In this document: piece by piece, positions 33,153-55,972 of the stretch | Layout: each line of letters starts with the position of its first letter | Numbering within the stretch: position 1 is the first letter of the stretch | Assembly: GCA_016183325.1 (NCBI GenBank) | Contig: JACPEV010000008.1 | Coordinates: 472 to 64,471 of the forward strand | Direction of reading: 5' to 3' | DNA: 64,000 bases | Source: Candidatus Curtissbacteria bacterium | GTDB taxonomy: Bacteria; Patescibacteriota; Microgenomatia; Curtissbacterales; GWA2-41-24 | Program-made: the position numbers and the translations under genes | The notes under the pieces: model-generated | What the model was told of the DNA's origin: nothing | The model's database searches: none | Seen by the model: the letters and a program-made list of their open reading frames with translations, nothing else

Positions 33153-33157
33153 AAGTT

Positions 33158-39025: not shown

Positions 39026-40621
39026 TCATACTAATTGAGCCGTCAATTTAGGCTGTATAACTTCTGGTAAATTTACTTTTTGAAATTTGGCGTAGGGGGT
39101 TTTTGGGTATTCAGGGTCGTAAGGACGCATATCAAAAGGGTTGTTATAGTCAAGACAGCCTGTACAGTGTGATGAATGCATTTCTTCCTGGGTCATGTTA
39201 AGCGACCTGGCCATACCACCAAGAGTAAGATAGTGCAGTGAAGATACATTCAGTTTACGCTTGATTTGATCTTCTGACAGAGTTTTATAATTACCATGCT
39301 TATCCTTTGTAACTGCTCCAAGCTCATCTCTTGAACCAATATTGACACCCAAAAAACAAGGATTGACAAACCGCGGGGCTAAAAATCGACAATGGATAGT
39401 TTTTACTCCAATTTTCAGAAGATGGGCGACCAGAATACTGAAGGTAGTCAGACGAACTGCCGTATCGTCGATTAAGTATATGGATTTGCCGATGAGGCTG
39501 GGCGATATAAAAAACTTTTTTTCGACATCTTTTTTCCTAAGATACGGATCGTCTTCAATGAAAGAACGTTTGGCGTGATCATATCTCTCTTTAACCAGAC
39601 CTCTTTTGTATCTAAATTTGAGTTTGGGGGACAGTTTATTTGCCAGCGATTCGTAAAAAGCGTAAGCTCCGGGATTGGCGGTATCTGGTACGGCAACCAC
39701 ATAATCGATGGCTTCGATAGTCTCTCTTCTAATCTTTTGTGATTTGATCCTGGCGTATTCTTCATTTGCTAGTTGACTGCCCAAACTTTCCCGATTTTGG
39801 CCAATGACTCCATCCCAAATAGAAGTCTCATGGGAAAAATACAGTTTTTCAAAAACACAAAAACTTCTTTTTTGAGGCATCAAATACTGGGCGATTGTAA
39901 CGCCGGTGCTATCTGCAATTAACATCTGTCCGGCTTCGATTTTTTGGCTGTGAGGAATGTTAATCCTGTCAAGTGCACAAGTTTCAGAAGCAACGAAGGC
40001 ATGGCCGTTGTCTTGGCTCCAAACCAGCGGTCTGACTCCCCAAGGATCTCGAAGTGCAATTAACTTGTCGTCACCGGTGACCATAACAAGCGAGAAAGCT
40101 CCTTTGACGTCGCAGAGGCTCTGGGCGATTTTTTGCCGCCAGGTAAAGCCGGGAGCCGTGACAATTAGCCAGGCAAGAATTTCTGAATCGGAATCAGATT
40201 CGAGTCTTATTCCAAATTTAGCCAATTTTCTGCGATGTTTTTTCAAATCGACAACATTACCATTGTGACCAAGTGCCACCTCCCAACCTTGATGTGAAGC
40301 GTGAAATGGTTGAGCGTCACAATCGCGACGCCGGCTGCCTTCTGTAGGATACCTTAGGTGGGCAATAGTAATTTCGCCTTTTAGAGAATTCTGATCCACA
40401 ATTTCTGTAGAACTAAAGATTTCGTTGAAAGCTCTGGCTTCTTTGTAAACTCTTAAGATTTGCCCTTGGGGCTTGACAGCGATTCCTCCACCGTTTTGGC
40501 CACGATGTTGAAGGGCCTTGCCCATTTCGATTGCTACAGCCGAGGCGTTAACGCCCTGAGGCGCTAAGCAACCGGCTACTCCGCAGCGATCGTAGGGTTT
40601 GTCAGGAAGATCCAGATTCAT
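39026..40621 (-). CDS. amidophosphoribosyltransferase-like protein (class II GATase + PRTase domains)
   Basis: N-terminal propeptide then CGVAG nucleophile. PRTase motif IYLIDDTAVRLTT. C-terminal Cys cluster. 531 aa. Confidence 0.55.
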   Translation of the reverse strand: MNLDLPDKPYDRCGVAGCLAPQGVNASAVAIEMGKALQHRGQNGGGIAVKPQGQILRVYKEARAFNEIFSSTEIVDQNSLKGEITIAHLRYPTEGSRRRDCDAQPFHASHQGWEVALGHNGNVVDLKKHRRKLAKFGIRLESDSDSEILAWLIVTAPGFTWRQKIAQSLCDVKGAFSLVMVTGDDKLIALRDPWGVRPLVWSQDNGHAFVASETCALDRINIPHSQKIEAGQMLIADSTGVTIAQYLMPQKRSFCVFEKLYFSHETSIWDGVIGQNRESLGSQLANEEYARIKSQKIRRETIEAIDYVVAVPDTANPGAYAFYESLANKLSPKLKFRYKRGLVKERYDHAKRSFIEDDPYLRKKDVEKKFFISPSLIGKSIYLIDDTAVRLTTFSILVAHLLKIGVKTIHCRFLAPRFVNPCFLGVNIGSRDELGAVTKDKHGNYKTLSEDQIKRKLNVSSLHYLTLGGMARSLNMTQEEMHSSHCTGCLDYNNPFDMRPYDPEYPKTPYAKFQKVNLPEVIQPKLTAQLV

Positions 40622-40723
40622 ATTTGTGGCCTTTTCCAGTTCTTAGTATCTGCTGCAAAATACTTTTTGTCAATTTCCAACACCTAGTTTTGTTTCTAAT
40701 TTTTTCGCCAGTCCCCCTGTCTT

Positions 40724-40795
40724 GACTCTCTCCTGCCTTGCACTGTCACGCTCCCGTATCGTGGCAGTATCGTCCTCGAGGGTCTGGAAATCAAC
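40724..40795 (-). repeat. decayed copy of the glyS 3' end (left island boundary)
   Basis: gactctctcctgccttgcactgtcacgctcccgtatcgtggcagtatcgtcctcgagggtc is about 70% identical to glyS 3'-end sequence at 51913-51975 and 51024-51085. The cacg-tcccg-atcgtg palindromic core is retained. Confidence 0.45.
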
Positions 40796-40878
40796 TTATT
40801 AAGGAAACGTTCCGCGAGTCAAGAGAGGAAAATTAGGGCAGGAAAACTGAAAGAAAAATTGCTTGAACTTTATTAATC

Positions 40879-41487
40879 TTACAGCCTTTCCATTTCTCTA
40901 TTTGCTTGTTCCGGACTAATGCTAGCAATCTGTTGGCTTTCTTTTGTCACGTAAAGGGTATCAGAATCATCGAGAAATTTGAGTTGAGATCTTTCGTATT
41001 TTCCCAGGCCAAGGTATTTGGCAATATCTCCTTCTCGTTGTTTAAATTCTTGGTCTTCAATTCTCAATTCCGGAACGTATGAATTGTTTGTAGGATCAAA
41101 ATATTCTACTTTTAATAATCTGACACAAGCCCCAACGCCGGTTTCATCCTGGGATACGATTAGCGACTGGCAAATCTGCCGCATCGGAGGATTCCAAAAA
41201 TCGCCAGGCTTCATATCGTTCATTGCTCTATACCTGAAACCTACCCTATTTTTTTCAAAAGCTTCAGCTTCGGAAATCCTCACCCGCCTATTGATTCCAA
41301 TAAGAGAGATTACTATTCTGCCATCTTTTGAAAGCTCTTCAGTTAATTTTATGACATTATTTTGGAATAATTGTGACGTTCTTGATTCAGGTGATTTGTC
41401 TTCTGGTCTTTCAGCCATTTTTTCATCCTCTTCCATTCCCGCTGATAAGTTGTCGTCTTGCTTCTCTAATGATATAAGAAAATGCAT
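40879..41487 (-). CDS. hypothetical protein ending in the shared C-terminal tail (ISPEQANREMERL); island gene 6
   Basis: The annotated start overlaps the helicase by 64 nt. Likelier starts are MEEDEK at 41436 or MAERPE at 41418, the latter 5 nt after the helicase stop and preceded by GGAAGAGGA. Confidence 0.5.
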   Translation of the reverse strand: MHFLISLEKQDDNLSAGMEEDEKMAERPEDKSPESRTSQLFQNNVIKLTEELSKDGRIVISLIGINRRVRISEAEAFEKNRVGFRYRAMNDMKPGDFWNPPMRQICQSLIVSQDETGVGACVRLLKVEYFDPTNNSYVPELRIEDQEFKQREGDIAKYLGLGKYERSQLKFLDDSDTLYVTKESQQIASISPEQANREMERL

Positions 41488-44400
41488 TCAACCTATCTTT
41501 GGGCATTCTATCGGTAACTGATAAATCTTGCAAAATCCGAATGCAGAATTCTTCTGCTTGAGGCCAATCCCATCCTGTGATTCTCGAAATTGGTCGGATT
41601 AAGTTTGTCCTGTAATCTCTGAAGTCTTGTATGGAAACTCCTCGTAAGAAATCTAAAATTGAGTTTTCCCTTTTAATAAGGGGTTCACCAGTCAAGATAA
41701 GTTCAACATCTTTATCAGTATCCACACTACGAATCTCTATTTCCGGCTTCTGTGTAGTTGTGACGTTTGGATTATATATTTCAAAGTGATCAAGCTCTAA
41801 ACGGAGCTGTGGCGACGGATAATCTGTTCCAGGACTCTTCCTCACTCTGCGGTTTGCCTTGGGACCTATGCTTAACCAGGCGCGTGAATCAGTAAGTAAT
41901 TCCAAGTCAGACAGGGTTAGACCTTTTAAGTCTACTTCTCCAACTTTTTGCGCCAAAATCGACCATCCAAGGCTTTTCTTGGTGCCGAGCTTACTAATTC
42001 CAATTGCACGCCCGCTATATTCTTGGTCAACCTTAAAACCAAAATGTTCTTCAAGAGCTGCTGTAAATTTTCTGAACTTGTCATCGTCTAAAACTCTTTC
42101 CGGTAAAGTTAGGGAGAAATAACCACTATTTTTAAGGACTCGGTTGCTTTCCCTTAGTATCTTCGTTCTTTCGGAATCTTCTGCCTTCACAGAACCTTTA
42201 TTTGAAAGTGAGGAATAATGTAGAACAAAAGCATTATCCAAAAAGTCATACGTATCATCCCGAGACTCTAGCTCATCGGCTCTTCCGAATTTTGCAGTAC
42301 CACCAAATATTCTTGCTTTTTCCCATCCTACTTGCAAAATATATGGATTAATGTCGACGTTATCAATACCCCTTTTTAGCTTTCTTTGCAGAAGAAGGGT
42401 CCCTGCGCCAACGCTCAAAATTTGACTTTCCTCTTCTGATTTAGTTTTAATCAGATGGCTTACGAAGTCAGCATTATATCCTGTTATATGATACTCATCT
42501 CTTCCTTCATCATAAAATTTAACCGCGATTCTTTGCGGATCTATCTCGTTTGTATGAAACATTTCAAGCGTCCTCTCTGCCCCCGCACCTGTCATGTTAT
42601 GGAAAGCTGTTGAGAGATATAATGAATCTTTGCTTCTAATTTCAATCCTATTCCCAAGTCTTTTAGAATCAAAAAATTCTTGTTGATCTGGATGTAAAAC
42701 AATTCCGGAAAGTGCCATTCTTGAAAGTAGATATGAGTAAACAACTGCTTCACCTTTACCTTGATCAACCATATCTTTAACTTCCAAAACCAGATTTTCG
42801 ACAGGGACAAGTTGTCCTTGTCTTTGCGATCTTCCTACCATCTGTTTTAACTGTTGAAAATGCCAGGGGGGTCCTAAGAAAATTTTTCTTACACCTACAA
42901 TCTCCCTGTCTTGTTCGTCCTTCAGGGCGTTTAATGTGTAATCCCTACTTTGATAGGTGGCTTCAAGCGTGACCAACATAAGCGCAGAACTTGGATTATT
43001 GACCCATCGAGAAATGACAGCTTCCCGCGGCCTTCCCACCCCGATTGTTCCATCTATCATTAATATGTCTTCAGGTGAACATAGACCGCTTACCCAAGAT
43101 TTTAGGAGAGTCATCAACTTAAAATCATTTATCGTATCCAATTCGTAACTTGTATATAAATTTGTTACTGACCCATCCTCTTGATTTATTGCTCGCTGCA
43201 AGACATCACCAGTTCGCCCTTGTCTACGTGAAGGAGAAATAATAAATACTTTGTCTCTAACTATTCTTCCATCTTCTGACTGCCTCCATGTCAACGAATC
43301 CGTGACGAGTCGTTTTAACGTTTTATATTTGGTTGATAACTTCCGACTCATCCAAAATTTTCTTAATTCAGCCAGGTCGGCATCAGAAGAATCTTTGGTA
43401 AGTTCTTCTACTAATGTATCCACTCCATTTTCTAAAAGCTCACTAAAGAAACAGGATAGTACTAAATCTCCCATTCCAATTTCGACTAGTCGATCTGCGC
43501 TTAAAAAATCTTCAGATTTTTGTGGAGAATCTACTCCCTTGAACTCTTTCCATTTGGGAACTATGAGTTTTAATATATTCAAAGTTTCGTCAATATCCAT
43601 TTCCTGAATTTTATCTTTTGCCATTCTTCGAATCTCCACTTTAGTGAGAAGTGGGTTCAGCAATGCATCTTCCAATAACCTAATCTTATTAAGAGGATTT
43701 GTTTGTATGTTGTCTTCAATGAATTGATGCAAATATTCTTCAAAGGGAGATGCTTGAATACTAAAAGGTGTGTATCTGAATTCTTGTACTCCGGTGGCCT
43801 GTTCCCACCTAAACATTCTTTTTTCTCCAATTAATGACATGTATACCAGGTCAGGGCGATTTAAATGGGCATCGCTAAAGGTTTTTCTTCTTGCAGTCGA
43901 AAATTCATGAACAGGAACATATTCAGATGGATATAGAATTGACATAGGCACATTTAAGTTGGCAAGTTTACTTCTGATTGGAGTGGCAGTAAGTCCCAGG
44001 ATCGGCGCATCTTCGTTTCCGGTTCTTTCTTGATAATTTTGACGTATTTTGCCGATTAAATGGAGTAATGCCTTAGAAGAAATTGCATCGTAATTATTGA
44101 AGTTATCAATCTCGTCAATTATTGAAGCGTCTACTTTTGCTGATTTAATTAGGGTTTCCTCAAGCAAAGGAAGCAAATTTGAATCACTTTGCGTGTCTTC
44201 CAGTAATTCTTGGCTAATAACTATATATTTCTTGCCTGAGTTTGCCGCATTTTTCAGCTCACCAGATCCTTTGACAATGTAAACTTGATCCGGATTGGTA
44301 AACGCAACATTTGATTCAATTTCCCATGTTTCTTTCCCTGCTGCTGTTGCAAAAACCAACACTCTTGCAGCATCCGAGTTTTCCATAGCTAGGTAAGCAG

Positions 44401-45394
44401 CGCTAGTTTTTCCAAGTCCCGTATCAGCTGCCAAAAGCCTTGTATTATGCCTTACAAAGTCGTAACAAAATGTTCTCTGTTCAAATGAGGGGAATGGCCT
44501 GGTTTGGTCTTTGACTTGAATTTGGGATTTAAATTCTCCTTTCAGCGGGAAAGTGGCTATATCATAAAATCGTTCGTGAATTTTTTCCAAAAATTGTTTT
44601 TTATCGGGATCTGTGCATTGCTTGATCACCTCTTCAAATTGTTTCATTCCCTCTTGAAGCCCGGCGTCCGTAATACTTCTTGAAAGGCTTTGTTCCAAAT
44701 AATTTTGAACTAAGTTGTATTTAATTGCATATATATTTCTAAAAATTTTCTTGGGGACTCTGTCTATCATGTCAACGATATCCATGTCTCTTTGAGGCAT
44801 AGTTCCAGTAAGAAGTCCAATATAAGGTCTGATAAGAGCAGTGGTTACCCAGGCACGGAGTTCTTCAATTTTTTTGGCATCCGTGACATTCTCGAATAAT
44901 TCCAATGTCATGATTTGACCTACTACCTCTAGAGGCCAACCGGCATCGACAAGCTCTTTGACATTAATATTCTCTGCCAACTTTGTTTCTACGACCTTTT
45001 GCGCTTCTTCATCCTCATGAGTCCCTCGCTTTATATGTCCTTTTTCTACTAGTAAAAGCTGCAAGTCTTCATACAATTCTTTGCCATGTGCTTTAATTTC
45101 TGCTTCTGCTTGCAGGCGTTCCTCATCAGATTTGAGTTGAATTACCATATCATCTCGAGGGATAAAATTCCTGAGAAGGAAAAGGGGGTCTTTTTGTTGC
45201 GCGTATATTCCACCTTCAATAAGCTTTTTCGCATAGTAAAATTTATGTCTAAGACGTGTTGAAGATGCGTAATTAGCTTCAAAAGTGCTACTTCCTTGCC
45301 AGTTTAGAACCCGATCTTCAAAATCGGGTGGTAGGATTATTTCTCCTTGTGGAGCCTCGTTCAGTCTCTCAATCATTAGGACTGATTTTATCAA
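41423..45394 (-). CDS. large SF2 helicase fused to a class I SAM-dependent methyltransferase-like domain (N-terminal ~320-aa unknown domain, C-terminal ~250-aa unknown domain)
   Basis: Helicase motifs I ADTGLGKTS, III LTATP and VI QMVGRSQRQGQ. MTase motifs I ILSVGAGTLLL, II DDTYDFLDNAFVLH and the RVLKNSGYFSL block. The annotated start is TTG; the ATG at 45376 (MIERLNEAPQG) is likelier. Confidence 0.7.
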   Translation of the reverse strand: MIKSVLMIERLNEAPQGEIILPPDFEDRVLNWQGSSTFEANYASSTRLRHKFYYAKKLIEGGIYAQQKDPLFLLRNFIPRDDMVIQLKSDEERLQAEAEIKAHGKELYEDLQLLLVEKGHIKRGTHEDEEAQKVVETKLAENINVKELVDAGWPLEVVGQIMTLELFENVTDAKKIEELRAWVTTALIRPYIGLLTGTMPQRDMDIVDMIDRVPKKIFRNIYAIKYNLVQNYLEQSLSRSITDAGLQEGMKQFEEVIKQCTDPDKKQFLEKIHERFYDIATFPLKGEFKSQIQVKDQTRPFPSFEQRTFCYDFVRHNTRLLAADTGLGKTSAAYLAMENSDAARVLVFATAAGKETWEIESNVAFTNPDQVYIVKGSGELKNAANSGKKYIVISQELLEDTQSDSNLLPLLEETLIKSAKVDASIIDEIDNFNNYDAISSKALLHLIGKIRQNYQERTGNEDAPILGLTATPIRSKLANLNVPMSILYPSEYVPVHEFSTARRKTFSDAHLNRPDLVYMSLIGEKRMFRWEQATGVQEFRYTPFSIQASPFEEYLHQFIEDNIQTNPLNKIRLLEDALLNPLLTKVEIRRMAKDKIQEMDIDETLNILKLIVPKWKEFKGVDSPQKSEDFLSADRLVEIGMGDLVLSCFFSELLENGVDTLVEELTKDSSDADLAELRKFWMSRKLSTKYKTLKRLVTDSLTWRQSEDGRIVRDKVFIISPSRRQGRTGDVLQRAINQEDGSVTNLYTSYELDTINDFKLMTLLKSWVSGLCSPEDILMIDGTIGVGRPREAVISRWVNNPSSALMLVTLEATYQSRDYTLNALKDEQDREIVGVRKIFLGPPWHFQQLKQMVGRSQRQGQLVPVENLVLEVKDMVDQGKGEAVVYSYLLSRMALSGIVLHPDQQEFFDSKRLGNRIEIRSKDSLYLSTAFHNMTGAGAERTLEMFHTNEIDPQRIAVKFYDEGRDEYHITGYNADFVSHLIKTKSEEESQILSVGAGTLLLQRKLKRGIDNVDINPYILQVGWEKARIFGGTAKFGRADELESRDDTYDFLDNAFVLHYSSLSNKGSVKAEDSERTKILRESNRVLKNSGYFSLTLPERVLDDDKFRKFTAALEEHFGFKVDQEYSGRAIGISKLGTKKSLGWSILAQKVGEVDLKGLTLSDLELLTDSRAWLSIGPKANRRVRKSPGTDYPSPQLRLELDHFEIYNPNVTTTQKPEIEIRSVDTDKDVELILTGEPLIKRENSILDFLRGVSIQDFRDYRTNLIRPISRITGWDWPQAEEFCIRILQDLSVTDRMPKDRLNAFSYIIREARRQLISGNGRG

Positions 45395-45413
45395 ATTTAG
45401 CCTATAGTTTCAA
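45385..45413 (-). promoter_or_regulatory. promoter P2 for the helicase gene: TTGAAA-N17-TAAAAT, 8 nt before the ATG (near-leaderless)
   Basis: Minus strand reads TTGAAActataggctaaatttgaTAAAATcagtcctaATG. It is almost identical to P1 at 50852-50880. The shared upstream motif CTAACAAGTGCCTTA is at 45498-45512. Confidence 0.5.
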
Positions 45414-45529
45414 ATCTGAAAAGTGATGTCTGCTCTTCTGTTTGCAAAATCTCAAATTAATTTTACGGTCCATGCTGATCCTTTGCATGATATTTACCTA
45501 ACAAGTGCCTTAGAGAGCATTATTGATTT

Positions 45530-47524
45530 TCATGCCTCTAAAAGCTTTACTAGTTGTTCGTTTGCCTCATCAGGAGAAATTGGTTGTGCTTTATCTCGAT
45601 TATTTTGTTTTTCTATTATTTCAACTATTAGTTGAATCAGCTCAGGAGCGTAGTGCTCAATAGGATGTCCTCCCTGATCGAGGTAAATCTCAAACCATTC
45701 TTGATGATCTTTCCTAAATTCTTTCGCTATCTGATCAATTACTCTTGAATTTTTTTTACGTAAATGATCCATTATGCCTCCTCTTGTCATCCAACCTTCC
45801 GGTGCTCGGCCATATCGTGTGAGCTCTTTGATAATTAACTCTTTCAATTCTGGTGAGTAATGCTCACGAATTCTGCCGTTTGAATCTACATAAAACTGAT
45901 GCCACTCGGGATGATTTTCTTTAAATTTATCGGCTCTATTACCCACAATTAAAGTGCTTCTCTTAATTTCTTTTGCTAAAGCTTCTTTTGTTATCCAGCC
46001 ATCTGGTTGATTTTTAAAGTTTGCGACATGCTCGATAATTAATGCAACGAATTCTGGTGAGTAATAATTATTGGGATGACCAGTCCGACTCAGAAATGTT
46101 TTGAACCAATCCAGATGCTCTTTTTTATATTTTTCTGCTAACCTTTCAACAAATTTCGGCGATTTTTCAACCAGTTCTGCTAAGCGCGCATTTGGGACCC
46201 ATCCTTCAGGAACAATATCGTATTTTGTAAGTTCATTTGTTAAGAAGGATACGAATTCGGGTGAATAATGATCCCGAAGAAACCCATTTCTAGCAACATA
46301 ATTTTTGGCCGATTCCGGATGTTGATCTCCAATTTGTTTAATTAATCTTTCAATAGGCCTCCTGGTTTTTCCTAATCGTTTTGCCAATTCTGTAATCGTT
46401 ATCCACCCTTCAGGTGCTTCGGTACCACCCTTTAATTCTTCTTCGGAAAATTCTATACCCAAAGGACTAAATGCAGATTTGAGGATCTCAAGCCGTAAGT
46501 TTTCGAATGATGGGTGCTCGCGACGAGGATTTCCAAACATTCTGCTGAAGTTCTTTTTTGATCTAACTTTTTCCCTAACGAATTGCTTTGCTTCTTCAAT
46601 TCTTCCTGTAATGACTGTCCCGTCTTTATCTAAGAAGGTTTCTATAAAATCTGGAAATTCTTGCAAAAATATCTCTCTTACGGCTTCAAAAATTTCTTCT
46701 CTATCTCTAGTATGCCAAATCCTCGGGTGAGCAAAATCGCTGTTATTAAATTGTACTCCCCAGGGTTTAAATGCTTTTTTAATAGCAGTTATGTAGCTTC
46801 CCTGGAAATAAGGTACTGCACCTTTTTGAACGGGTGTTCCACCAATAATTTGCGCAAATTTAATCTGATTTCCAATTTTCTCTTTAATAAATTCTTTCGC
46901 CGTTTCTTGGAAATTACTTTTTATTTGTCCATCATCATCTCTTGGAAATAAATCATTAAATTCAGGAAAGTTTTCAAGAAATAATCCTTGAATGTTGCCA
47001 ATGCCTATTTGTTCATTCTCTTCGGTGGTTTTGTCTGGAAATTTCCAGCGAACTTGTCCTATTGCATCTTTTAAAATTATTGGCCTATTTTTATCGCCAT
47101 TTGGTGAAGTATCTTTTGCAATTTCATTTCCTGGTAGCTCAATTCCCCAAGGAGCGAAGGATTTTTTAAAAACAACTAGGTAAGAGCCTTCAAAATATGG
47201 GCAAGATCTCTTATCACAAGCAACTCCAAAAGACATATAAAATTGTCTATTTTTGAAGACGTGGCTAAGTATAAATTCTCTTGCTTGTTCTACCCTGTTA
47301 CCATCAACTTTACCATCCTGATCTCTAAGAAATTGTAAATTAAAATCTGGAAACTTTTCTAGAAAAAGCGCTTGCACATTTCTAATGCCCAGCCGCTCAT
47401 TTTCCTCCAAGGTGTTGCCAGGTAGATGCCAACGTATTCGGCCTCCTCTATCCCTAAGAACTGTTGGCTTAGATATAGGAGAATATTCTGATAGTGACTG
47501 AGGATTTTCTTCTTCTTTTATCAT
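45530..47524 (-). CDS. repeat-rich protein with shared C-terminal tail (…PISPDEANEQLVKLLEA); island gene 4
   Basis: 664 aa. Two N-terminal copies of a ~110-aa 'RDRGGRIRWxLPGN…FLExFPxFN' domain plus a degenerate third. Then four tandem ~68-aa 'PEGW-T…LA…R…HxEW…HYSPE' repeats that look HTH-like. Confidence 0.55.
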   Translation of the reverse strand: MIKEEENPQSLSEYSPISKPTVLRDRGGRIRWHLPGNTLEENERLGIRNVQALFLEKFPDFNLQFLRDQDGKVDGNRVEQAREFILSHVFKNRQFYMSFGVACDKRSCPYFEGSYLVVFKKSFAPWGIELPGNEIAKDTSPNGDKNRPIILKDAIGQVRWKFPDKTTEENEQIGIGNIQGLFLENFPEFNDLFPRDDDGQIKSNFQETAKEFIKEKIGNQIKFAQIIGGTPVQKGAVPYFQGSYITAIKKAFKPWGVQFNNSDFAHPRIWHTRDREEIFEAVREIFLQEFPDFIETFLDKDGTVITGRIEEAKQFVREKVRSKKNFSRMFGNPRREHPSFENLRLEILKSAFSPLGIEFSEEELKGGTEAPEGWITITELAKRLGKTRRPIERLIKQIGDQHPESAKNYVARNGFLRDHYSPEFVSFLTNELTKYDIVPEGWVPNARLAELVEKSPKFVERLAEKYKKEHLDWFKTFLSRTGHPNNYYSPEFVALIIEHVANFKNQPDGWITKEALAKEIKRSTLIVGNRADKFKENHPEWHQFYVDSNGRIREHYSPELKELIIKELTRYGRAPEGWMTRGGIMDHLRKKNSRVIDQIAKEFRKDHQEWFEIYLDQGGHPIEHYAPELIQLIVEIIEKQNNRDKAQPISPDEANEQLVKLLEA

Positions 47525-48871
47525 TCATTCCTCTAAAAACCTTCTTAATTGTTCGTTGGCTTCGTCGGGGGAGATTGAATCCTTTTCTATCTTTTCTTTT
47601 GGTGAATAGTTGCCCCCTTTGAGCGCGTCCATTATATCTTCTTGATTGTAAAGCTCAACAACTTTACCAGAAATGTCGCGACCGGTAATAACATTAATAT
47701 TTCTTCCACGAAGGTGGCGACGCATAGTTGCTGTTTGAAGCCCAAATGATTTTCGAAAATAAAATTGGGGCACCCATGTTTGATTGTTTTCATCGGTGTA
47801 GAGTCCCGTCACCTTATCCACTCGGGGTAAGTTTAAAAATTCGCTGATCTTTTCTGAAGCTTTCGATTCGTCGAAAAGGACTACTTCCGCACCAACCCTA
47901 CTTCTACCTTGTATCTGGGGGACATCAACAAGTAATGATGATAACGAAGTTCCACTAACCTGGAATCTGCTTCGAAGCACTCTTCTAGATACCCAACTGG
48001 AAGTACTGTTTTCTGTATACGAGCCTGTTTCGTTATTTACCCTAGGTAGCAGCAAAAAATTATTTATTTGACTTGTCACTTCGGGCACATTGTAGAGAAT
48101 GGTTTCGTGGCCAACCCCATCTCTGCCAGCTATAGATCGAACTCCTTGCATGAACTTTGATAGTTTTTCAGCACTAAGACCGTGATTAACTTTAAAGTAA
48201 TTAGCAGGGGCCCAACATTCTCCGTCTTCGTTTTGATATTGACCGATTGAACTATCAACTTGCGGGAGCGCAAAAAATTCGTTAATTCTTCTTGAAACTT
48301 CAGCTTCATTGTAGAGTCTAATTTCATGACCTTTAAGACCTACTCCTGCTCTTGATGGAACGCCGATCAAACGTTTAGACAAAGTTGGTCCGTTGATTTT
48401 AAAATTCTTTCTAAAAAAATAGGAGGAGGCCCAATTATTACCGTTTGCGTCCGTCCAGCGAGTTTCCTTATCAACCTTCGGTAAAGAAAGGTCGAGTCCC
48501 CAAGGATTGAAAGATTTTTCTAAAACGAAGTGATATGATCCTTGAAAATACGGGACTGTATTTTTCGAAAAAGGGGATTCTCCTGTTAGAGCAACAAACT
48601 CTTGTCTTTTACCTATTCTATCTAATATAAATTCTTCTGCTTGACCTCTTTTATCCTCTATAATTTTTTCATCTTCGCCCTTGGGGAAAAGTTCATTAAA
48701 CTCTGGATATCTTTCTAAGAAGATTGCTCGAATGTTTTTTATTCCAAGCATTAAGTTCTCTTCTTCAGAGTTGCCTGGAAGCGACCAGCGAATTCTGCCT
48801 CCTTTATCACGAAGAATTGACGGTACTTGGATTTCTTGATTTTGTGTTAGTAATGTTTCTTTTGCCATCAA
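47525..48871 (-). CDS. repeat-rich protein with shared C-terminal tail (…SISPDEANEQLRRFLEE); island gene 3
   Basis: 448 aa. One RDKGGRIRWSLPGN domain, then four ~70-aa 'W…YF-K-F…LS-L…GR-GVG-E…LYNE-EV…I-EFL-LPRV…TG-YT' repeats. The true start ATG overlaps the upstream stop (TGATG). Confidence 0.55.
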   Translation of the reverse strand: MMAKETLLTQNQEIQVPSILRDKGGRIRWSLPGNSEEENLMLGIKNIRAIFLERYPEFNELFPKGEDEKIIEDKRGQAEEFILDRIGKRQEFVALTGESPFSKNTVPYFQGSYHFVLEKSFNPWGLDLSLPKVDKETRWTDANGNNWASSYFFRKNFKINGPTLSKRLIGVPSRAGVGLKGHEIRLYNEAEVSRRINEFFALPQVDSSIGQYQNEDGECWAPANYFKVNHGLSAEKLSKFMQGVRSIAGRDGVGHETILYNVPEVTSQINNFLLLPRVNNETGSYTENSTSSWVSRRVLRSRFQVSGTSLSSLLVDVPQIQGRSRVGAEVVLFDESKASEKISEFLNLPRVDKVTGLYTDENNQTWVPQFYFRKSFGLQTATMRRHLRGRNINVITGRDISGKVVELYNQEDIMDALKGGNYSPKEKIEKDSISPDEANEQLRRFLEE

Positions 48872-49728
48872 TTCTCCAAAAGTCTTTTTAGCTGTTCGTT
48901 AGCTTCGTCGGGGGAAATAGTTGATTCTGCAGGTCTGTAAAGTCTTGTGTCTCCTTTGTGAAATATCCTGCGATCGATTAATTTTTGTTCTCCTTCTTGA
49001 TTAACTAAGAAAATTTCTAAAAATGTATTGCTTTTTTCATCGACTTTTGGTTGAAAAGCTAGCTCTTTTCCGTAAGACGTTCGTATTTCTTTATTATTTA
49101 ATACGACGGCTTTACCTCTAACCATTCCTATATGAAAGCTGTCTGTTCGAGTGAAATTCCACGTCCAAAATTCTTTCAGCATGTGTGGTTCTATCTCTTT
49201 TCTTCCACCGAGGTAATCTAAAAAAATCTGTCTTTCAAAACCATGCCAACTTTCTACTTTTAGGTTTTGAGCGTCAATCCTAAACGATTGAATTAGTTCA
49301 TTAAAATCTACTACATCCCTTAATCCTAATTCGTGGAAATCAATCCATTGATATAATTTATTTTCGTCTTCTCTAGGAAAAGCTAAGATTATTCCGCTGT
49401 TGCGGATAATTTTTTGCGATAATGGATTGAGGCTAAAGATTACTGTCCTTCCTTGAATTCTGCCACCTATGTAAAATCTTGTTCCGACTTTATTATCACC
49501 TCTGGCTTCTTCTATCAAAAACGGTGGAATTTCTTCAAAAGGAAATCTTCCTCTGAGAAAAGCGTGCAGAAAAGCTACGCCCTCCTCCTGGTCTACTGCG
49601 TATATGGGTGAAGGTTTCCATGGATCTGGCTCTACTTGCGAAGGATCAGACCTGTCTCCCAATTCCAAATCTATTATTTTAATGAATCGTTTACTATTGG
49701 GACTTTTTGGTTGCATCTCTGGATTCAT
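48868..49728 (-). CDS. hypothetical protein with shared C-terminal tail (…TISPDEANEQLKRLLEN); island gene 2
   Basis: 286 aa. The upstream gene's final GAGGAA (Glu-Glu) codons form the SD, and its TAA stop overlaps this ATG (TAATG). Confidence 0.5.
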   Translation of the reverse strand: MNPEMQPKSPNSKRFIKIIDLELGDRSDPSQVEPDPWKPSPIYAVDQEEGVAFLHAFLRGRFPFEEIPPFLIEEARGDNKVGTRFYIGGRIQGRTVIFSLNPLSQKIIRNSGIILAFPREDENKLYQWIDFHELGLRDVVDFNELIQSFRIDAQNLKVESWHGFERQIFLDYLGGRKEIEPHMLKEFWTWNFTRTDSFHIGMVRGKAVVLNNKEIRTSYGKELAFQPKVDEKSNTFLEIFLVNQEGEQKLIDRRIFHKGDTRLYRPAESTISPDEANEQLKRLLEN

Positions 49729-50843
49729 TATTCCTCCAAAAGTCTTCTTAACTGTTCATTGGCTTCGTCAGGGGAAATGATTACATCTACCGAATTTTTA
49801 TTTGTGTCACTAAGACCTAGCTTTGCTCTCAAAGCTCTAATACGACCTGGATAAGCTCGAATTGCACCCCATAGGTCATACCTGTTTTTTGCTTGCAATG
49901 CATTTCTTGTAAGTAATCCTTCCTGCTGGAAGAATTCCCAAGCCTCTTTTTCTATTACTTCTGAAGTCCAATATCCTTTCTTCCTTATTAGTCTAATATC
50001 AAGCCCTAGATCTCTTTTTAAGCCTGTCATTTTCCCAGGATAAAATTTACCAATAGCTGTTCTAAGATCGCCCCTTCCTTGCCTAGCTAATAAATTTGTT
50101 GTTAAATGTTCCTCTTCTCCTAAAAAAGCTAAAGCTGCTTTTCGGATTTCTTCTGGGGTCCAGTAATGATATGGCTTTGCAGATGGTCCTAAACCTAAAT
50201 CTTGTTTTAACTGCCTTATTCCACCTGGATAATGTCGTAGGATAGCATTAAGTAAGTCATTTCTATGGCCCTCGAAAAGCAATCGGGCGCTAATTTTTCC
50301 TTCTTGATCTAGAAACCCTTTGGACTCCTCGAAGATCATTTCCTTTGTCCAATAATTTCCAGGTTTTTTAATTATCTTAAGACCAAGATTTCTTCTGAGC
50401 CCCACCATTCCATCTGGATAATATTTAGCTACTGCAGCGACAAAGCTTGATAAGCCAGCTTTTACCAATGTTCGTTGTTTTAAGTCTGAGCCTTCTGTAT
50501 CCAATCTACGACCCTCGTGTTCTATATTGGTTAGCTCCCGCCAGAATCCGGATGGTCTTGATGATGAAGGTACGCCAAGATTCACTTTTAAACCTGAAAA
50601 ACCTCCAGGATAGTAATGAACAATACCATAAAGCAGATCAAACTTTCCTGCACGGCTCAAGTTAACTCTTGTAAGATCATTTCCTTGTTGAATAAATCCA
50701 GTTGCTTCTGCAAGAACAACCGCGCCTAATAATCCTTGATCTTCTAATAACCTCCAACGGATCCTACCTCTATCATCTCGCGGTATGTCAATAGATTGGA
50801 AATCTTCCTCGGTCTTAGTAGCAAAAACAGTTCTTTCAGCCAT
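49728..50843 (-). CDS. repeat-rich protein with shared C-terminal tail (…IISPDEANEQLRRLLEE); island gene 1
   Basis: 371 aa. N-terminal RDDRGRIRW motif, then about five ~68-aa 'L…AI…YPGG…L…LGL…YWT-EEI…F…EG-L' repeats. Confidence 0.55.
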   Translation of the reverse strand: MAERTVFATKTEEDFQSIDIPRDDRGRIRWRLLEDQGLLGAVVLAEATGFIQQGNDLTRVNLSRAGKFDLLYGIVHYYPGGFSGLKVNLGVPSSSRPSGFWRELTNIEHEGRRLDTEGSDLKQRTLVKAGLSSFVAAVAKYYPDGMVGLRRNLGLKIIKKPGNYWTKEMIFEESKGFLDQEGKISARLLFEGHRNDLLNAILRHYPGGIRQLKQDLGLGPSAKPYHYWTPEEIRKAALAFLGEEEHLTTNLLARQGRGDLRTAIGKFYPGKMTGLKRDLGLDIRLIRKKGYWTSEVIEKEAWEFFQQEGLLTRNALQAKNRYDLWGAIRAYPGRIRALRAKLGLSDTNKNSVDVIISPDEANEQLRRLLEE

Positions 50844-50851
50844 GATGAGGA

Positions 50852-50880
50852 ATTTTACAATATTTGGCCTATAGTTTCAA
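50852..50880 (-). promoter_or_regulatory. promoter P1 for the island operon: TTGAAA-N17-TAAAAT, 8 nt before the ATG
   Basis: Minus strand reads TTGAAActataggccaaatattgTAAAATtcctcatcATG. The shared upstream motif CTAACAAGTGGCTTA is at 50947-50961. Confidence 0.5.
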
Positions 50881-50973
50881 GTGGGCCCATGATATTATTA
50901 CTGCCTGTAGTTTATTAAACGAGTATATTACTCGCTTGATAGTTATCTAACAAGTGGCTTACTGAGTAGGCGG

Positions 50974-51140
50974 TTAATGATATATGGATAATTTTTGCGC
51001 AAGTTCTTTTTGGAGATTTTCGACCTTCACTCTTTCTTGTTTAGCCGTATCACGATCCCGAATCGTGACGGTGTCGTCTTCGAGTGTCGCAAAGTCTATG
51101 GTTATGCAGTAGGGTGTTCCGATTTCGTCCTGGGTGGAGC
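50974..51140 (-). pseudogene. displaced 3'-terminal fragment of glycine--tRNA ligase (att-like duplicate; right island boundary)
   Basis: The minus strand encodes …[52 protein letters not shown]. The intact glyS ends …[49 protein letters not shown]. Nucleotide identity is about 85% over ~110 nt. The fragment has no start codon. Confidence 0.65.
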
Positions 51141-51180
51141 CTTGAATAGGCTTAAGGAATGTTATATTATTATCTATATC

Positions 51181-51372
51181 ATGGGAATCATTGATCTAAG
51201 AAGAGTCTTGAAAAATCGTCGTTCCGGGTGGATCTCTATTTCGAAAGACTACAAAAGGGTTATTGCCAAAGACCAAACCTTAGGGGGTCTTGTCAAAAAA
51301 CTGCAAAGGCTTGGCAATCCCGAAGGATATCTTGTCAAGGCAGCGAACGATTATTCCAGATATGTGGGCTGA
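51181..51372 (+). CDS. small partner protein of the retropepsin cassette, copy 2 (divergent)
   Basis: 63 aa (…[19 protein letters not shown]…). It occupies the 3' part of the ORF-track frame 50995-51372. Its stop overlaps the next ATG (TGATG). Confidence 0.4.
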
Positions 51373-51899
51373 TGAAACCTGTTATTTTGCAGCCACCAAT
51401 AAAGATCTGGTATAAAACGCTTCCCGGATTTTCAAAAATCATTTGGCCAATACTTGATATCAAATTGTCTATAAATAGTTTCGTTCTTCCTCAACCTATC
51501 TTTTCGCTTGTAGATTCCGGTGCGAGTATTTCTATAATCCATCCACAGATAGCCGAGATATTAGGATTTGACCGAGAAAGATTAGGCAAATCGCGATCGT
51601 CAGGAAAATCAGCCAGCGGTGATTATAAATCTTGGATTTTACCGAATCTTGTTGAAGTAAATATTTATGGCCATTTGTTTAATTTTAGGTTCGAAGTATT
51701 AGATAATCCAAATCTTATGTGGCCATGTATTTTGGGAGAAGATTCAATCTTTCAAGTTGCCAAGGTTGATTTTTCAAAATTCAGAGGTTATTTTGAATTG
51801 AGGATTAGACTAAAAGAAGATAAATCTAGGAGTTTGGCCGAACTTGCTAAAAACACGTACGGTGCATGGAAAGAACCGGTTAGGAAAATTTCTTCATAA
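51372..51899 (+). CDS. retropepsin-like (clan AA) aspartic protease, cassette 2
   Basis: FSLVDSGASISIIHPQIAEILGFD. Start MKPVIL is coupled to the upstream stop. The ORF-track N-terminus (51228-) is probably not translated. Confidence 0.55.
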   Translation: MKPVILQPPIKIWYKTLPGFSKIIWPILDIKLSINSFVLPQPIFSLVDSGASISIIHPQIAEILGFDRERLGKSRSSGKSASGDYKSWILPNLVEVNIYGHLFNFRFEVLDNPNLMWPCILGEDSIFQVAKVDFSKFRGYFELRIRLKEDKSRSLAELAKNTYGAWKEPVRKISS

Positions 51900-53409
51900 G
51901 AATATTTGCAAGTGTGTCCACTTTTACTCTTTCCTGTTTGGCCGTGTCACGATCCCGGATCGTGACAGTGTCGTTTTCCAAAGTTTCGAAGTCGATGGTG
52001 ATGCAATAGGGTGTGCCGATTTCGTCTTGGGCGAAGTAGCGTTTGCCGATGTTGCCGCGATCGTCCCAAGCAACAGGTTGCAGTAAATGGTGAATGGATA
52101 ATTGTGAATAGAGCAAGCGGGCTTTTTTGACGAGATCGGGTTTATTGGCAAGAAGCGGGAAAACGGCGGCTTTAAAGGGGGCGAGTTTGGGGTGGAGTTT
52201 AAGAATTACTCTCTTTGCTATATCCCCCGAACCCGGTTTGGAGGATTTTTGCAAACCGGGTTCGTCTTTTGCTGGTTCCTCTGTATAAGCATCGATTAAG
52301 AAAAAAAGCGCGGCGCGATCGACTCCTCCCGAAGTTTCGATGATATATGGAAGGTATTTTTTATTTTTCGCAGGCTCAAAATAGGTCATATCGACGCCGG
52401 AATGTTTTTGATGCTGAGACAGATCCCAGTCTCCCCTATTGTGAATTCCTTCAAATTCTTTCCAGCCTCCGCCAGAGGCGGATAGATCGTATTCAATATC
52501 CCAGGCGTCTTTGGCGTAGTGAGCACGCTCGCCTTCTTCGTGCTGACGAAACCTAAGTTTGTCTTTTTTCATTCCGAGCTCCAAGTACCATTTCATGCGC
52601 TCGTTTTTCCAGTATTCGTACCATTTTTCGGATTCTTCCTTTTCTGGTTTGACATAATATTGAAGTTCCATTTGTTCAAATTCACGGGAGCGAAATGTAA
52701 AGTTACCGGGAGTAATTTCGTTTCGGAAGGCCTTGCCGATTTGGGCAATTCCGAAAGGAATTTGGACTCGAGTGGAATCGAGGATGTTTTTGAAATTGAC
52801 ATGGACACCTTGAGTGATTTCACCGCGAAGATAAACTTTTTGTTTGGCGTCTTCAACAACGCCGAGTTTGGCTTCAACAAGGAGATTGAATTTTTTAGGT
52901 TCTGTAAAATTGTGCTCTTTATCTTTGGTGGGATTTTCTACGATTTCTTTAAAATCATGCTTATTTTTACCATCCATGCAGTAAATGAACGGTAAAATTT
53001 CGCTTTGCTCTTGAGATAATGACCAAGAAGTTACATTTGTTGAGATCGAACTTGTCTTTGTAAAAACCATGTGCTTCAATTTCTCTTTTGCTTCTGTAAC
53101 ATTATCAGCCCTGAACCTCTTATGACAAATTTTGCATTCTACAAGTGGATCAGTAAACGCTTTGACATGACCGGAGGCTTCCCAGACTTTGGGATTCATG
53201 AGAATTGCAGTGTCGATGCCCACTACATCGTCCCTACCGTAAACCATCGACTGCCAAAAAGCCTTTTTGATGTTGTTTTTGAGCTCGACTCCGAGAGGAC
53301 CATAATCCCAAGTTCCCCCAAGTCCGCCGTAGATTTCAGAACCGGGATAAATAAAGCCACGACGCTTTGCGAGAGAAACAATTTTTTCTAAATTCGTAAT
53401 TTTATCCAC
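51880..53409 (-). CDS. glyQS: glycine--tRNA ligase (dimeric class II GlyQS type)
   Basis: 509 aa with class II motifs and an anticodon-binding C-terminus. Confidence 0.9.
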   Translation of the reverse strand: MDKITNLEKIVSLAKRRGFIYPGSEIYGGLGGTWDYGPLGVELKNNIKKAFWQSMVYGRDDVVGIDTAILMNPKVWEASGHVKAFTDPLVECKICHKRFRADNVTEAKEKLKHMVFTKTSSISTNVTSWSLSQEQSEILPFIYCMDGKNKHDFKEIVENPTKDKEHNFTEPKKFNLLVEAKLGVVEDAKQKVYLRGEITQGVHVNFKNILDSTRVQIPFGIAQIGKAFRNEITPGNFTFRSREFEQMELQYYVKPEKEESEKWYEYWKNERMKWYLELGMKKDKLRFRQHEEGERAHYAKDAWDIEYDLSASGGGWKEFEGIHNRGDWDLSQHQKHSGVDMTYFEPAKNKKYLPYIIETSGGVDRAALFFLIDAYTEEPAKDEPGLQKSSKPGSGDIAKRVILKLHPKLAPFKAAVFPLLANKPDLVKKARLLYSQLSIHHLLQPVAWDDRGNIGKRYFAQDEIGTPYCITIDFETLENDTVTIRDRDTAKQERVKVDTLANILMKKFS

Positions 53410-54963: not shown

Positions 54964-55092
54964 ACCACTATTGTATCAAGTATCATGGATCAAGTTTCAA
55001 GTTTTGATAAAATCAGCATTACCTACTTATCAAGGTATTCTAAATCCGGTTTGGAATAGCTTTACAAATCAGGATTTCGACGGTATCTAATT

Positions 55093-55146
55093 CCCTACTC
55101 GCCAAGCTAATCCGAACCCGGTTTGGTCTACGTTGGCGAGCAAGGG
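55093..55146. repeat. REP-like hairpin flanking the RAYT gene (left)
   Basis: ccctactcgccaagctaatccgaacccggtttggtctacgttggcgagcaaggg is the near reverse complement of 55844-55896. ctcgccaa/ttggcgag forms an internal stem. Confidence 0.55.
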
Positions 55147-55821
55147 TTATTCTAGGGTGAGATGTTTGATTATGTTAAGTTTTTGCTGATAGCCGGCTTG
55201 ATCATAAACGAATTTTCTGTAATCTTGAATGGATTTAAAGTAATTTAAAATTACCTGCGTGTTTACAAAGCTTTGAACATTTCCTTCATTTAAATAACTT
55301 CTAAATGACGACCACGGATAGTTATCTAAATCCCCTATTCTGATAATAAAAGCAGACACGGGATTCAAGTGAATATATCTTGAGACATGTAATAATTGTT
55401 CATCATTTTCAATTCTCACTGCTTTGAACATAGATTGAAATAGTGAGCCAGTTCTTTCATTTTTAGTATTAAAGTATTTCGAGCAACTATGCTGAAAGTT
55501 TGTCATAAAATTGGAAATTGATTTTTCCTCTAAAGCTTTTAACAAGAAATGTACATGGTTTGGCATAATACAAAAAGCAATAATTTCTAAGAAAGGTTTA
55601 TAACTTCGTGCTAAATTTTCTAAAAAAACAGCCCTTTGAGCTGCTGGTAATTGTTTATACTTGGAAAACTTTAATGGCGGTTTTGGGTATCGATAAAAAC
55701 TGATAACCTCAAGAGCTCGCTGATAATCCTTTTGGCTTAGAAAAATTGGCTGTTTGGCAATACTTCTGTTAAAAACATGATAAACTTCTCCAGGAACTAA
55801 AGGTATTTTGCGATAAGGCAT
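55147..55821 (-). CDS. IS200/IS605-like Y1 (HUH) transposase of the REP-associated tyrosine transposase (RAYT) type
   Basis: YHVFNRS N-terminus, HUH motif MPNHVHFLL, C-terminal SRYIHLNPV with a candidate catalytic Tyr. 224 aa. Flanked by REP-like inverted repeats. Confidence 0.7.
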   Translation of the reverse strand: MPYRKIPLVPGEVYHVFNRSIAKQPIFLSQKDYQRALEVISFYRYPKPPLKFSKYKQLPAAQRAVFLENLARSYKPFLEIIAFCIMPNHVHFLLKALEEKSISNFMTNFQHSCSKYFNTKNERTGSLFQSMFKAVRIENDEQLLHVSRYIHLNPVSAFIIRIGDLDNYPWSSFRSYLNEGNVQSFVNTQVILNYFKSIQDYRKFVYDQAGYQQKLNIIKHLTLE

Positions 55822-55843
55822 ATCTTGATCTTAATCGAGTATT

Positions 55844-55896: not shown

Positions 55897-55972
55897 ATAA
55901 GGCAGTTTGCAAGTTTTGCGGGCTTTGATTTGTTCAAGACCTCTGTATCAAGTATCATATATCAAACGGCAT

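Follow-up and report, generated by a model that had tools for sequence, protein, structure and literature searches.

The 64,000-nucleotide stretch of DNA analysed here (the window) comes from a Candidatus Curtissbacteria bacterium (GenBank assembly GCA_016183325.1, contig JACPEV010000008.1, positions 472 to 64,471). Between the glycyl-tRNA synthetase gene glyS and a purF-like gene, it holds a block of DNA that nine relatives lack. This block comprises a cassette of six minus-strand genes and a small plus-strand module of two genes, and three copies of the glyS 3' end (A, B and C) lie along it. The cassette encodes a large helicase-methyltransferase fusion (HelMT), a 202-residue protein (Y) and four accessory proteins. 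An earlier reading, made from the sequence alone, saw in this arrangement the footprint of site-specific integration at the end of glyS, possibly in two tandem events. We conclude that the block is very probably a composite insertion, built up at the glyS 3' end in at least two steps.

Genomic locations of glyS in other bacteria provide strong support for an insertion. We surveyed 80 glyS loci, one genome per species, the best glyS relatives being found in metagenome-assembled genomes of Curtissbacteria. All nine Curtissbacteria-type loci with downstream sequence carry a purF-like gene 74-622 nt after glyS. In these nine empty-site loci (L007, L009, L010, L011, L013, L014, L015, L040, and L053), the purF-like gene is followed by mraZ, rsmH, ftsL, and a penicillin-binding protein gene, which are the same genes as those flanking the block in the window, and upstream synteny also matches. 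Neither island genes nor a second glyS end were detected in any of the 80 loci. As nine relatives have glyS adjoining the purF-like gene, positions 40622-51879 of the window (11.3 kb) represent an insertion, and the empty site that the sequence-only reading had predicted, with glyS next to the purF-like/mraZ region, does exist. The neighbourhood also varies in other ways: the purF-mraZ gap contains inserts in L053 (2716-7097, 4.4 kb), L010 (4186-5422, 1.2 kb), and L011 (12987-14070, 1.1 kb), and small unrelated open reading frames (ORFs) lie in the glyS-purF gap of L010 and L015.

The six cassette genes all lie on the minus strand with tight junctions, as had been noticed before, but the single operon proposed for them should probably be divided in two. 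Nearly identical sigma-70-like sites (TTGAAACTATAGGCnAAATnT..TAAAAT), with an upstream box common to both, precede the first accessory gene (P1) and HelMT (P2), the latter in a 135-nt gap before the helicase gene. The promoter-like motif TTGAAACTATAGGnnnAATnTnGTAAAAT is found in four copies, two in the window (50843-50880 and 45376-45413) and two in L104, a second occupied locus described below (3060-3110 and 5760-5818). At all four, a start codon lies 8-9 nt past the -10 box, which suggests leaderless transcripts for both cassette units in the two genomes. Judging from these signals, the gene block probably forms two co-regulated transcription units, not one operon.

Table 1. Features of the glyS-purF region of the window and of a nearby transposase gene.
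Feature	Position	Strand	Description
glyS (class II glycyl-tRNA synthetase, GlyRS, 509 aa; target gene)	51880-53409	-	Pfam tRNA-synt_2b and HGTP_anticodon; syntenic orthologues 67-72% identical in Curtissbacteria relatives
Copy A, live glyS 3' end	51883-52036	-	Contains near-perfect palindrome GTCACGATCCGGGATCGTGAC at 51946-51966, coding VTIRDRD
Small two-gene module between copies A and B	51181-51899	+	63-aa ORF (51181-51372) and retropepsin-like aspartyl protease
Retropepsin-like aspartyl protease	ORF 51228-51899, likely ATG 51372	+	Pfam gag-asp_proteas E 2.2e-5, Asp_protease_2 E 2.5e-4, both below curated cut-off
Copy B, displaced glyS 3' end	50986-51139	-	No start codon; own stop codon, own tail
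Promoter-like site P1 and upstream box	P1 50880-50852; box 50934-50966	-	TTGAAA-17-TAAAAT; before 371-aa gene
Accessory protein, 371 aa	49728-50843	-	Repeats of about 65 aa ('YWT..YPGG..LGL') and tail ISPDEANEQLRRLLEE; no Pfam or PDB match
Accessory protein, 286 aa	48868-49728	-	Tail; domain common with 550-625 aa accessory proteins of distant loci
Accessory protein, 448 aa	47525-48871	-	N-module ('RDxGGRIRW..PYFxGSY..PWG'), repeats of about 70 aa, and tail
Accessory protein, 664 aa	45530-47524	-	Three N-modules, 'PEGW..HYSPEL' repeats, and tail; weak helix-turn-helix (HTH)-like match, Pfam HTH_29 E 1.7e-5, below cut-off
Promoter-like site P2 and upstream box	P2 45413-45385; box 45485-45517	-	Paralogous to P1; before HelMT
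HelMT	41423-45394	-	Snf2-like superfamily 2 (SF2) translocase fused to Rrp8/nucleomethylin-like class I S-adenosylmethionine (SAM) methyltransferase; 1323-aa ORF, likely ATG 45376 giving 1317 aa; no tail motif
Y protein	40879-41487	-	AAG/MPG-like methylpurine-glycosylase fold and tail ISPEQANREMERL; 202-aa ORF, likely start 41418 giving 179 aa
Copy C, most decayed glyS 3' end	40685-40795	-	Distal insertion edge; adjoins start of purF-like gene (39026-40621)
IS200-like Y1 transposase	55147-55821	-	Pfam Y1_Tnp 45.5 bits; 3.3 kb from island

Copies of the glyS end and a second occupied site

Three same-orientation copies of the glyS 3' end were recovered, as the sequence-only reading had stated. 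Copy B aligns with the live end over 154 nt without gaps, at 76% nucleotide identity (tblastn match to the glyS end, E 1.8e-22). It stays in frame before a different 15-residue end with its own stop codon, and 35 of its 37 residues are identical to the GlyRS C-terminus (the changes being E to A and N to D), so that the 38 identical residues claimed earlier were a slight overstatement. Copy C was rightly recognised as well, although it extends further than the 40724-40795 first assigned to it. Its translation, which begins VDFQTLEDDTATIRERDSARQERV..., is 59% identical over 37 aa (tblastn E 1.3e-10, the next match in the window having an E value of 0.036), and in-frame stop codons lie upstream of it. 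In a nucleotide scan, copy C reached a local score of 49, compared with at most 30 for unrelated windows, while two intermediate scores correspond to reverse-strand self-matches of the palindrome. The alignment of the copies, which the earlier reading had left to be verified, is thus above chance.

The sequences of these copies bear on their origin. The 21-nt palindrome covering the VTIRDRD codons is present at the three glyS copies only, with a chance expectation of 0. Self-complementarity over these codons involves 20 of the 21 positions in copy A, 16 in B, and 14 in C, versus 6-16 positions (median 10) in the glyS genes of 71 relatives. Such high palindromy fits a recombination site on which selection would have acted as DNA. 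Over their 37 shared codons (111 nt), copies A and B show 20 differences, of which 17 fall at third positions (nonsynonymous divergence, dN, 0.036; synonymous divergence, dS, about 1.9 and near saturation; dN/dS 0.018). As the divergence is almost wholly synonymous, one of the two copies must have been imported. As this substitution pattern indicates, both evolved under selection as working GlyRS ends for almost the whole of their divergence, in separate lineages.

A word-based search with the 286-aa accessory protein returned the protein itself and one homologue, which led us to locus L104. This locus belongs to a Curtissbacteria-like genome, in which GlyRS is 67% and the purF-like product 78% identical to those of the window. 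Its gene order is glyS, a DUF433 gene, a displaced glyS end, the promoter motif, two tail-tagged genes, HelMT, Y, and purF, and the ATG of the DUF433 gene overlaps the glyS stop codon (ATGA overlap). The first 17 nt of the displaced copy (GTCACCATCCGCGACCG, within the VTIRDRD codons) match the live gene perfectly, and the two diverge beyond them, as is expected of a crossover core. Compared with the window, identity amounts to 31% for HelMT, 39% for Y, and 60% for the 286-aa protein. With glyS, a different small module, a displaced glyS end, the cassette, and purF in succession, L104 supports the two tandem events that had been suggested as a possibility.

Both occupied genomes also provide information on the order of these events. 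The displaced glyS end (copy B in the window) directly adjoins the cassette promoter in each of them, and the small module overlaps the live glyS stop codon in both (in the window, the 3' end of the aspartyl protease gene convergently overlaps it by 20 nt). The two-gene module of the window is not present in relatives. Because copy B adjoins the cassette promoter and the small module overlaps the live stop codon in both genomes, the simplest order is cassette first and small module later. In such a scenario, the cassette of about 10 kb would have arrived with a replacement glyS end (now copy B), so that the original one (copy C) came to lie next to purF; the 0.7-kb two-gene module would then have arrived with another replacement end (now the live copy A), displacing copy B. 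Copy C, which is the oldest orphan in the proposed order, is the most decayed of the copies. The crossover site would probably be the VTIRDRD-coding sequence.

The cassette and its shared C-terminal tail

We examined fourteen cassette loci, including those of the window and L104. Gene order is the same in all of them, with one to eight or more accessory genes followed by HelMT and Y. HelMT of the window is identical to an NCBI protein entry from Candidatus Curtissbacteria. A word-based search with HelMT yielded 31 relatives, all of about 1300 aa, the named ones originating from the Candidate Phyla Radiation (CPR)/Microgenomates, and a profile of Y retrieved 112 clusters among 1.84 billion representatives. 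The cassette is thus rare, and so far it has been seen mainly in CPR/Microgenomates metagenomes. By tblastn, HelMT matched none of 50,697 phage and 72,556 plasmid records, a scan of IMG/VR was negative as well, and all examined contexts are chromosomal and devoid of virion or conjugation genes. In the literature searched, no paper describes this gene combination or glyS as an integration site.

Genomic contexts of the cassette are diverse. Besides glyS in the window and L104, the cassette is located between ftsI and murE in L088, directly before murE in L103, next to glnA in L089, adjoining ychF in L095 and about 2.5 kb from this gene in L004. In L001, it has a tRNA-Lys gene as a neighbour and an integrase gene 3 kb off. 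Several loci have toxin-antitoxin-type neighbours (AbiEii, PhdYeFM, DUF433). In L094, direct repeats of about 100 nt (8002-8104 and 15614-15710, 79% identical, non-coding and with no Rfam match) flank the cassette together with an opposite-strand gene for a 365-aa protein without known function; they may represent a second kind of insertion footprint. The division and cell wall (dcw) cluster recurs among these neighbourhoods, as the cassette lies directly before murE in L088 (4199-14742) and L103 (656-14436), and one gene away from mraZ, the head of the cluster, in the window. This proximity may reflect either coincidence or a preferred neighbourhood.

The earlier statement that no island protein could be assigned to a family beyond helicase and methyltransferase motifs did not survive structure prediction. 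Searches of all island proteins against Pfam, NCBIfam, PADLOC, and PHROGs returned weak helicase, methyltransferase, and HTH matches only, and searches of the PDB by sequence and profile were uninformative for HelMT, Y, the N-module profile, and the 371-aa protein. Predicted structures point to an Snf2 helicase and an Rrp8/nucleomethylin-like methyltransferase in HelMT, and to the AAG glycosylase fold in the 202-aa protein.

The helicase-methyltransferase fusion proposed from motifs is therefore retained, as Snf2-like and Rrp8-like by predicted structure. SF2 motifs I, II, III, and VI (GxGKT, DExD, TATP, and QxxGRxxRxG) are invariant in 28 HelMT homologues, as is the methyltransferase motif I SxGAGTLL, and a SAM-binding motif I is found together with a Rossmann-like fold. 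An AlphaFold2 model of residues 124-1323 has a predicted local distance difference test score (pLDDT) of 80.5. The top five structural neighbours of the helicase part are all Snf2-family double-stranded DNA (dsDNA) translocases, and its viral structure matches are likewise SNF2 helicases. Residues 164-480 match phrog_62, a phage helicase family (E 2e-21). In Pfam, the window protein matches only DEAD (the best helicase match) and ResIII, both below cut-off, and does not reach the SNF2-rel_dom threshold; PF00176 is recorded for one homologue (P0010).

For Y, the AlphaFold2 model (pLDDT 87, predicted template modelling score 0.80) adopts an AAG/MPG fold, and the closest structural neighbour is the DNA glycosylase AAG, at 21-24% identity. 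An hhalign comparison with the human AAG sequence gave an E value of 1.3e-4 and a probability of 54%, pairing RISEAEAF with RIVETEAY and GVGACVRLL with GDGACVLLR. Sub-threshold matches to PF02245 were obtained for two Y members and one distant member (best E values 0.055 and 1.9e-4). The position equivalent to the base-stacking Tyr127 is aromatic in 109 of the 112 clusters and is F in the window protein. Y may be a base-flipping reader rather than an enzyme, if the variation at its catalytic position (see below) is any guide. Alternatively, by analogy with 3-methyladenine glycosylases, whose labile cationic methylpurine substrates need little catalysis, Y may act on such bases.

The accessory proteins are mosaics built from an N-module (about 115 aa), repeats of three types (60-70 aa), and the 286-aa-type domain. 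They evolve fast, their copy number and module order vary by locus, and the only profile matches they show are weak ones of HTH type. In the middle of the accessory-gene array of L103, a separate gene for a TehB-like class I methyltransferase lies on the opposite strand (6543-7451).

What these proteins have in common is their C-terminal tail. Five tail-tagged island proteins had been announced from the sequence, and all five were recovered: the four accessory proteins end in ISPDEANEQLxxLLEx and Y ends in ISPEQANREMERL. The motif A-[ND]-x-[YQEF]-[LMI]-x-x-[LFI]-[LVI] is located 0-9 residues from the C-terminus in 53 of the 57 accessory proteins, the structurally unrelated Y included, of the 14 loci, and in none of 30 HelMT homologues. 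Across all six frames of the window, stop-to-stop ORFs of 100 aa or more (21,751 residues) contain it five times, and four of these occurrences are the tails. Within a locus, all tails belong to one subtype, including those of unrelated proteins, and the subtype differs among loci, with Y following the local one: ANEQLxxLLE in the window, L087, and L102, ANEELMxFLE in L099 and L103, A[ND]xYLRxLVFGE in L088, L089, and L095, and ADxFMExIAFG in L097. The tail is an acidic, amphipathic peptide, which in the Y model forms a short helix after a low-confidence linker.

Since the tail is carried by every component but one and covaries within loci, a docking partner encoded by the locus itself is suggested. 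We lean slightly towards the tail being a docking peptide for such a common partner, for which HelMT would be the obvious candidate. Two other explanations of the motif were considered and rejected. The tail does not resemble a sliding-clamp-binding motif, as its hydrophobic spacing (i, i+3, i+4) is unlike that of QL[SD]LF or QLxLxL. Nor can its conservation be a mere by-product of ribosome-binding sites, given that the last gene of each unit is also tailed and that the motif persists across differing sequences. A GGAG-type ribosome-binding site for the next overlapping gene does lie within the codons of the final residues, LLEE or LLEN (48866-48918, 49726-49778, and 47523-47575), and translational coupling may account for some of the conservation that the tails show as DNA. 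In L001 (8214-9998) and L088 (4199-6076), the first accessory protein also bears a tail-like motif near its N-terminus (ADLYLHNLVYGD and EADTYLHNLVYGD, respectively).

Proposed function and competing explanations

According to the mechanism we propose, HelMT would act as a hub combining an Snf2-like dsDNA translocase with an Rrp8-like methyltransferase, and Y and the repeat proteins would dock onto it by their C-terminal amphipathic peptide, carried on a flexible linker. The repeat proteins would serve as interchangeable nucleic-acid recognition adaptors. The complex would methylate purines on target DNA, which the AAG-like subunit would then recognise or excise. We infer a DNA target and a conflict with foreign DNA from structure prediction and gene context. 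That the cassette is a DNA-targeting, defence-like conflict module is a serious possibility, if not quite a probable one. The write-then-excise chemistry is doubtful. More speculative still is the full picture, in which the cassette would be a previously unrecognised prokaryotic immune system found mainly in CPR bacteria: a purine-methyltransferase motor would write cationic methylpurines on foreign DNA, a tethered AAG-like subunit would convert them to abasic sites, one to eight shuffled adaptors would set the targets, and the system would spread without a recombinase of its own by replacing the end of an essential gene.

How the block was inserted is a separate question. No recombinase was detected in the island and module proteins or, by Pfam, in 22 further ORFs of the window, in line with the earlier remark that no integrase is visible, the sole transposase-type match being the IS200-like Y1 transposase. 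The integrase of L001 gave no tblastn match, and Rfam and tRNA scans revealed no RNA gene at the island borders. A recombinase may have been lost or may act in trans; alternatively, recombination that requires no dedicated enzyme may have produced the insertions. Of the footprint initially ascribed to site-specific integration, the insertion itself is thus established by the empty sites and by copies aligning above chance, while the action of a recombinase at glyS is something that the repeat structure would only suggest, no such enzyme having been found.

The main rival, which we consider possible but rather unlikely, dispenses with a site-specific recombinase and regards the glyS-purF junction as a hot spot, where DNA from related cells would have been patched in by homologous or illegitimate recombination, with the conserved glyS end as an anchor and the pseudo-copies as scars. 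It agrees with the lack of a recombinase in both occupied genomes, with the mosaic replacement within the cassette (HelMT and Y of L104 being far less similar to those of the window than the 286-aa protein, with a conserved promoter), with the small unrelated ORFs in the gap of L010 and L015, and with the cassettes of L088 and L089, which lack flanking repeats. However, an ordinary double crossover in flanking genes leaves no duplicated gene ends, whereas every inserted unit here carries a complete in-frame replacement end; the exact 17-nt core bordering the displaced end in L104 and the unusual palindromy of the window copies are also hard to reconcile with such exchanges. Alternatively, the block could be ancestral at this site and lost in relatives, the glyS copies resulting from local duplication and decay. 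The window and L104 do have the site and general architecture in common, but this scenario is quite improbable in view of the clean empty sites of nine relatives, of cassettes at unrelated sites in other lineages, and of a dN/dS of 0.018 with dS near saturation, which is incompatible with in-place decay of a duplicate. Finally, the Y1 transposase might have mobilised the island via the palindromic hairpins of the glyS copies, as its gene is only 3.3 kb away and the IS200-like family acts on hairpins. We rejected this candidate as extremely improbable: the hairpins on both sides of the Y1 gene (55093-55145 and 55843-55897, with 26-27-nt arms) are unrelated to the glyS palindrome, are found nowhere else in the window, and do not lie at the island ends, the glyS copies of L104 are not markedly palindromic, and the island repeats consist of coding sequence, 110-150 nt in length, rather than of hairpins alone.

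Two further alternatives concern the role of the cassette rather than its insertion. The tail, being C-terminal, acidic, amphipathic, and absent from HelMT, could have another purpose than docking onto this protein. It might direct secretion or transfer into a host cell, mark proteins for degradation, or form a self-association helix by which the accessory proteins are bundled. CPR bacteria live attached to other cells, and type IV and type I secretion systems use C-terminal signals, which are points in favour of secretion. Nevertheless, secretion genes are present in none of the 14 contexts, the covariation of tail subtypes within loci fits a locus-encoded partner, and HelMT is the only invariant component without a tail, so that we regard these options as unlikely. 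About as unlikely, in our opinion, is a cassette acting on RNA, through modification or surveillance of rRNA or tRNA. The best Pfam helicase match of HelMT is DEAD, and the AAG fold also exists in the tRNA-binding C-terminal domain of formyltransferase, but all five top helicase neighbours are Snf2-family dsDNA translocases, the viral structure matches are Snf2 helicases, and the closest neighbour of Y is a DNA glycosylase with which it has the GxACV motif and the aromatic base-stacking position in common. In addition, the cassette differs from housekeeping RNA modification in being patchily distributed, placed like an island, and accompanied by toxin-antitoxin-type genes.

As a whole, an 11-kb insertion beside glyS carrying the cassette as cargo, proposed function included, strikes us as the best explanation, one that we hold to be somewhat probable. 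Several observations weigh against it. Regarding insertion, no composition jump is seen at the island, exact runs common to the window copies reach only 11 nt, the glyS copies of L104 do not look markedly palindromic by eye, and the cassettes of L088 and L089 showed no repeats at their flanks. No integrase, resolvase, or DDE transposase was detected in the six island and two module proteins (Pfam, NCBIfam, PHROGs, and PADLOC), nor any recombinase in L104 (precomputed Pfam matches). Regarding function, the best structural neighbours of the methyltransferase domain methylate rRNA, not DNA, and the position equivalent to the catalytic Glu125 of AAG is E in only 37 of the 112 Y clusters (Q in 28 and K in 14; E in the window protein). 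Furthermore, none of the accessory repeat proteins could be given a supported fold, and the only match to PADLOC models is a weak one to mad2 (E 0.0022), on the methyltransferase domain.

Islands that insert at the 3' end of tRNA, tmRNA, or protein genes and regenerate it are well known, and include P4-type elements, SCCmec in rlmH, integrative and conjugative elements in guaA or prfC, and tandem tycheposon arrays. The window resembles them in having same-orientation partial copies of the target gene at the flanks, a live gene end supplied by incoming DNA, tandem accretion at one site, and empty sites in relatives. It differs from them in lacking a recombinase gene and a composition shift, in copies that are 24% diverged, with exact runs of only 11 nt in the window and 17 nt in L104, and in its target, as the use of glyS in this way was not found in the literature searched. 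The integration footprint is thus a variant of a familiar theme, that of islands regenerating the 3' end of their target, here with no recombinase and with an essential aminoacyl-tRNA synthetase gene as the target. The cargo, on the other hand, is undescribed, both in its hub-and-tail organisation and in combining, unusually, a methyltransferase and a methylpurine-glycosylase-like protein.

The closest functional parallels are found among defence systems. As in DISARM (DrmD and DrmMI), BREX, and Zorya (ZorD), a large SF2/Snf2-like ATPase and a methyltransferase are encoded in one patchily distributed, island-like locus. Unlike these systems, the cassette has no PADLOC match beyond the weak mad2 one on the methyltransferase domain, its class I methyltransferase is Rrp8-like, with no DPPY-type DNA amino-methyltransferase motif seen, and it includes an AAG-like partner and arrays of tail-tagged putative adaptors. 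Helicase-methyltransferase fusions are also known among 'polyvalent' proteins, such as those of the DarB type of phage P1 (PMC5512222). HelMT shares with them the combination of both activities in one large polypeptide and the phrog_62 match, but has no match in the phage, plasmid, and IMG/VR data, is found in chromosomal contexts, and has a methyltransferase of a different class. Y resembles AAG/MPG (PF02245), with which it aligns at the RIVETEAY and GDGACV motifs and whose base-stacking aromatic residue is kept in 109 of 112 clusters; in contrast, it falls below the Pfam threshold, does not conserve the catalytic glutamate family-wide, carries a putative docking tail, and is always encoded directly after HelMT. 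Regarding the tail, hub proteins may recruit many partners via one short terminal peptide, as for clients of the C-terminal tail of the single-stranded DNA-binding protein (SSB) and for sliding-clamp-binding motifs, and type I restriction enzymes can have several alternative HsdS specificity subunits. By analogy, the cassette would associate one short peptide or interface on many diversifying proteins with a single motor or enzyme, although its tail differs in sequence from that of SSB and from the clamp motif QL[SD]LF.

The genomes of CPR bacteria are tiny and contain few recognised defence systems, yet here about 1% of a genome of about 1 Mb is spent on the cassette. Should the tail prove to be a docking peptide, the cassette would offer a clear case in nature of a single motor that serves many exchangeable adaptors, and would bring together a methyltransferase and a methylpurine-glycosylase-like reader, a chemistry without described counterpart among defence systems. 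The glyS insertions, for their part, show the ends of essential protein genes in CPR genomes as reusable landing sites, at which incoming DNA supplies the new end. The glyS end is thus a concrete place to seek mobile DNA in uncultured CPR organisms.

Other features of the window

The Y1 transposase gene lies beside a NUDIX gene (55907-56512), and the pair (54964-56508) is located between recO and a DUF4012 gene. As these two genes are adjacent in relatives, the Y1-NUDIX pair represents a second small insertion in the window. Elsewhere, a SAM riboswitch (33156-33267; Rfam RF00162, 44.7 bits, which barely exceeds the gathering score) immediately precedes the S-adenosylmethionine synthetase gene (32018-33121). 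Finally, motifs judged by eye indicate two toxin-antitoxin-like pairs in the region 8600-11000, one consisting of a nucleotidyltransferase-like ORF (8601-8897) and a HEPN/DUF86-like ORF (8890-9228), and the other of a PIN-like ORF (10330-10710) and a small upstream ORF (10714-10992).

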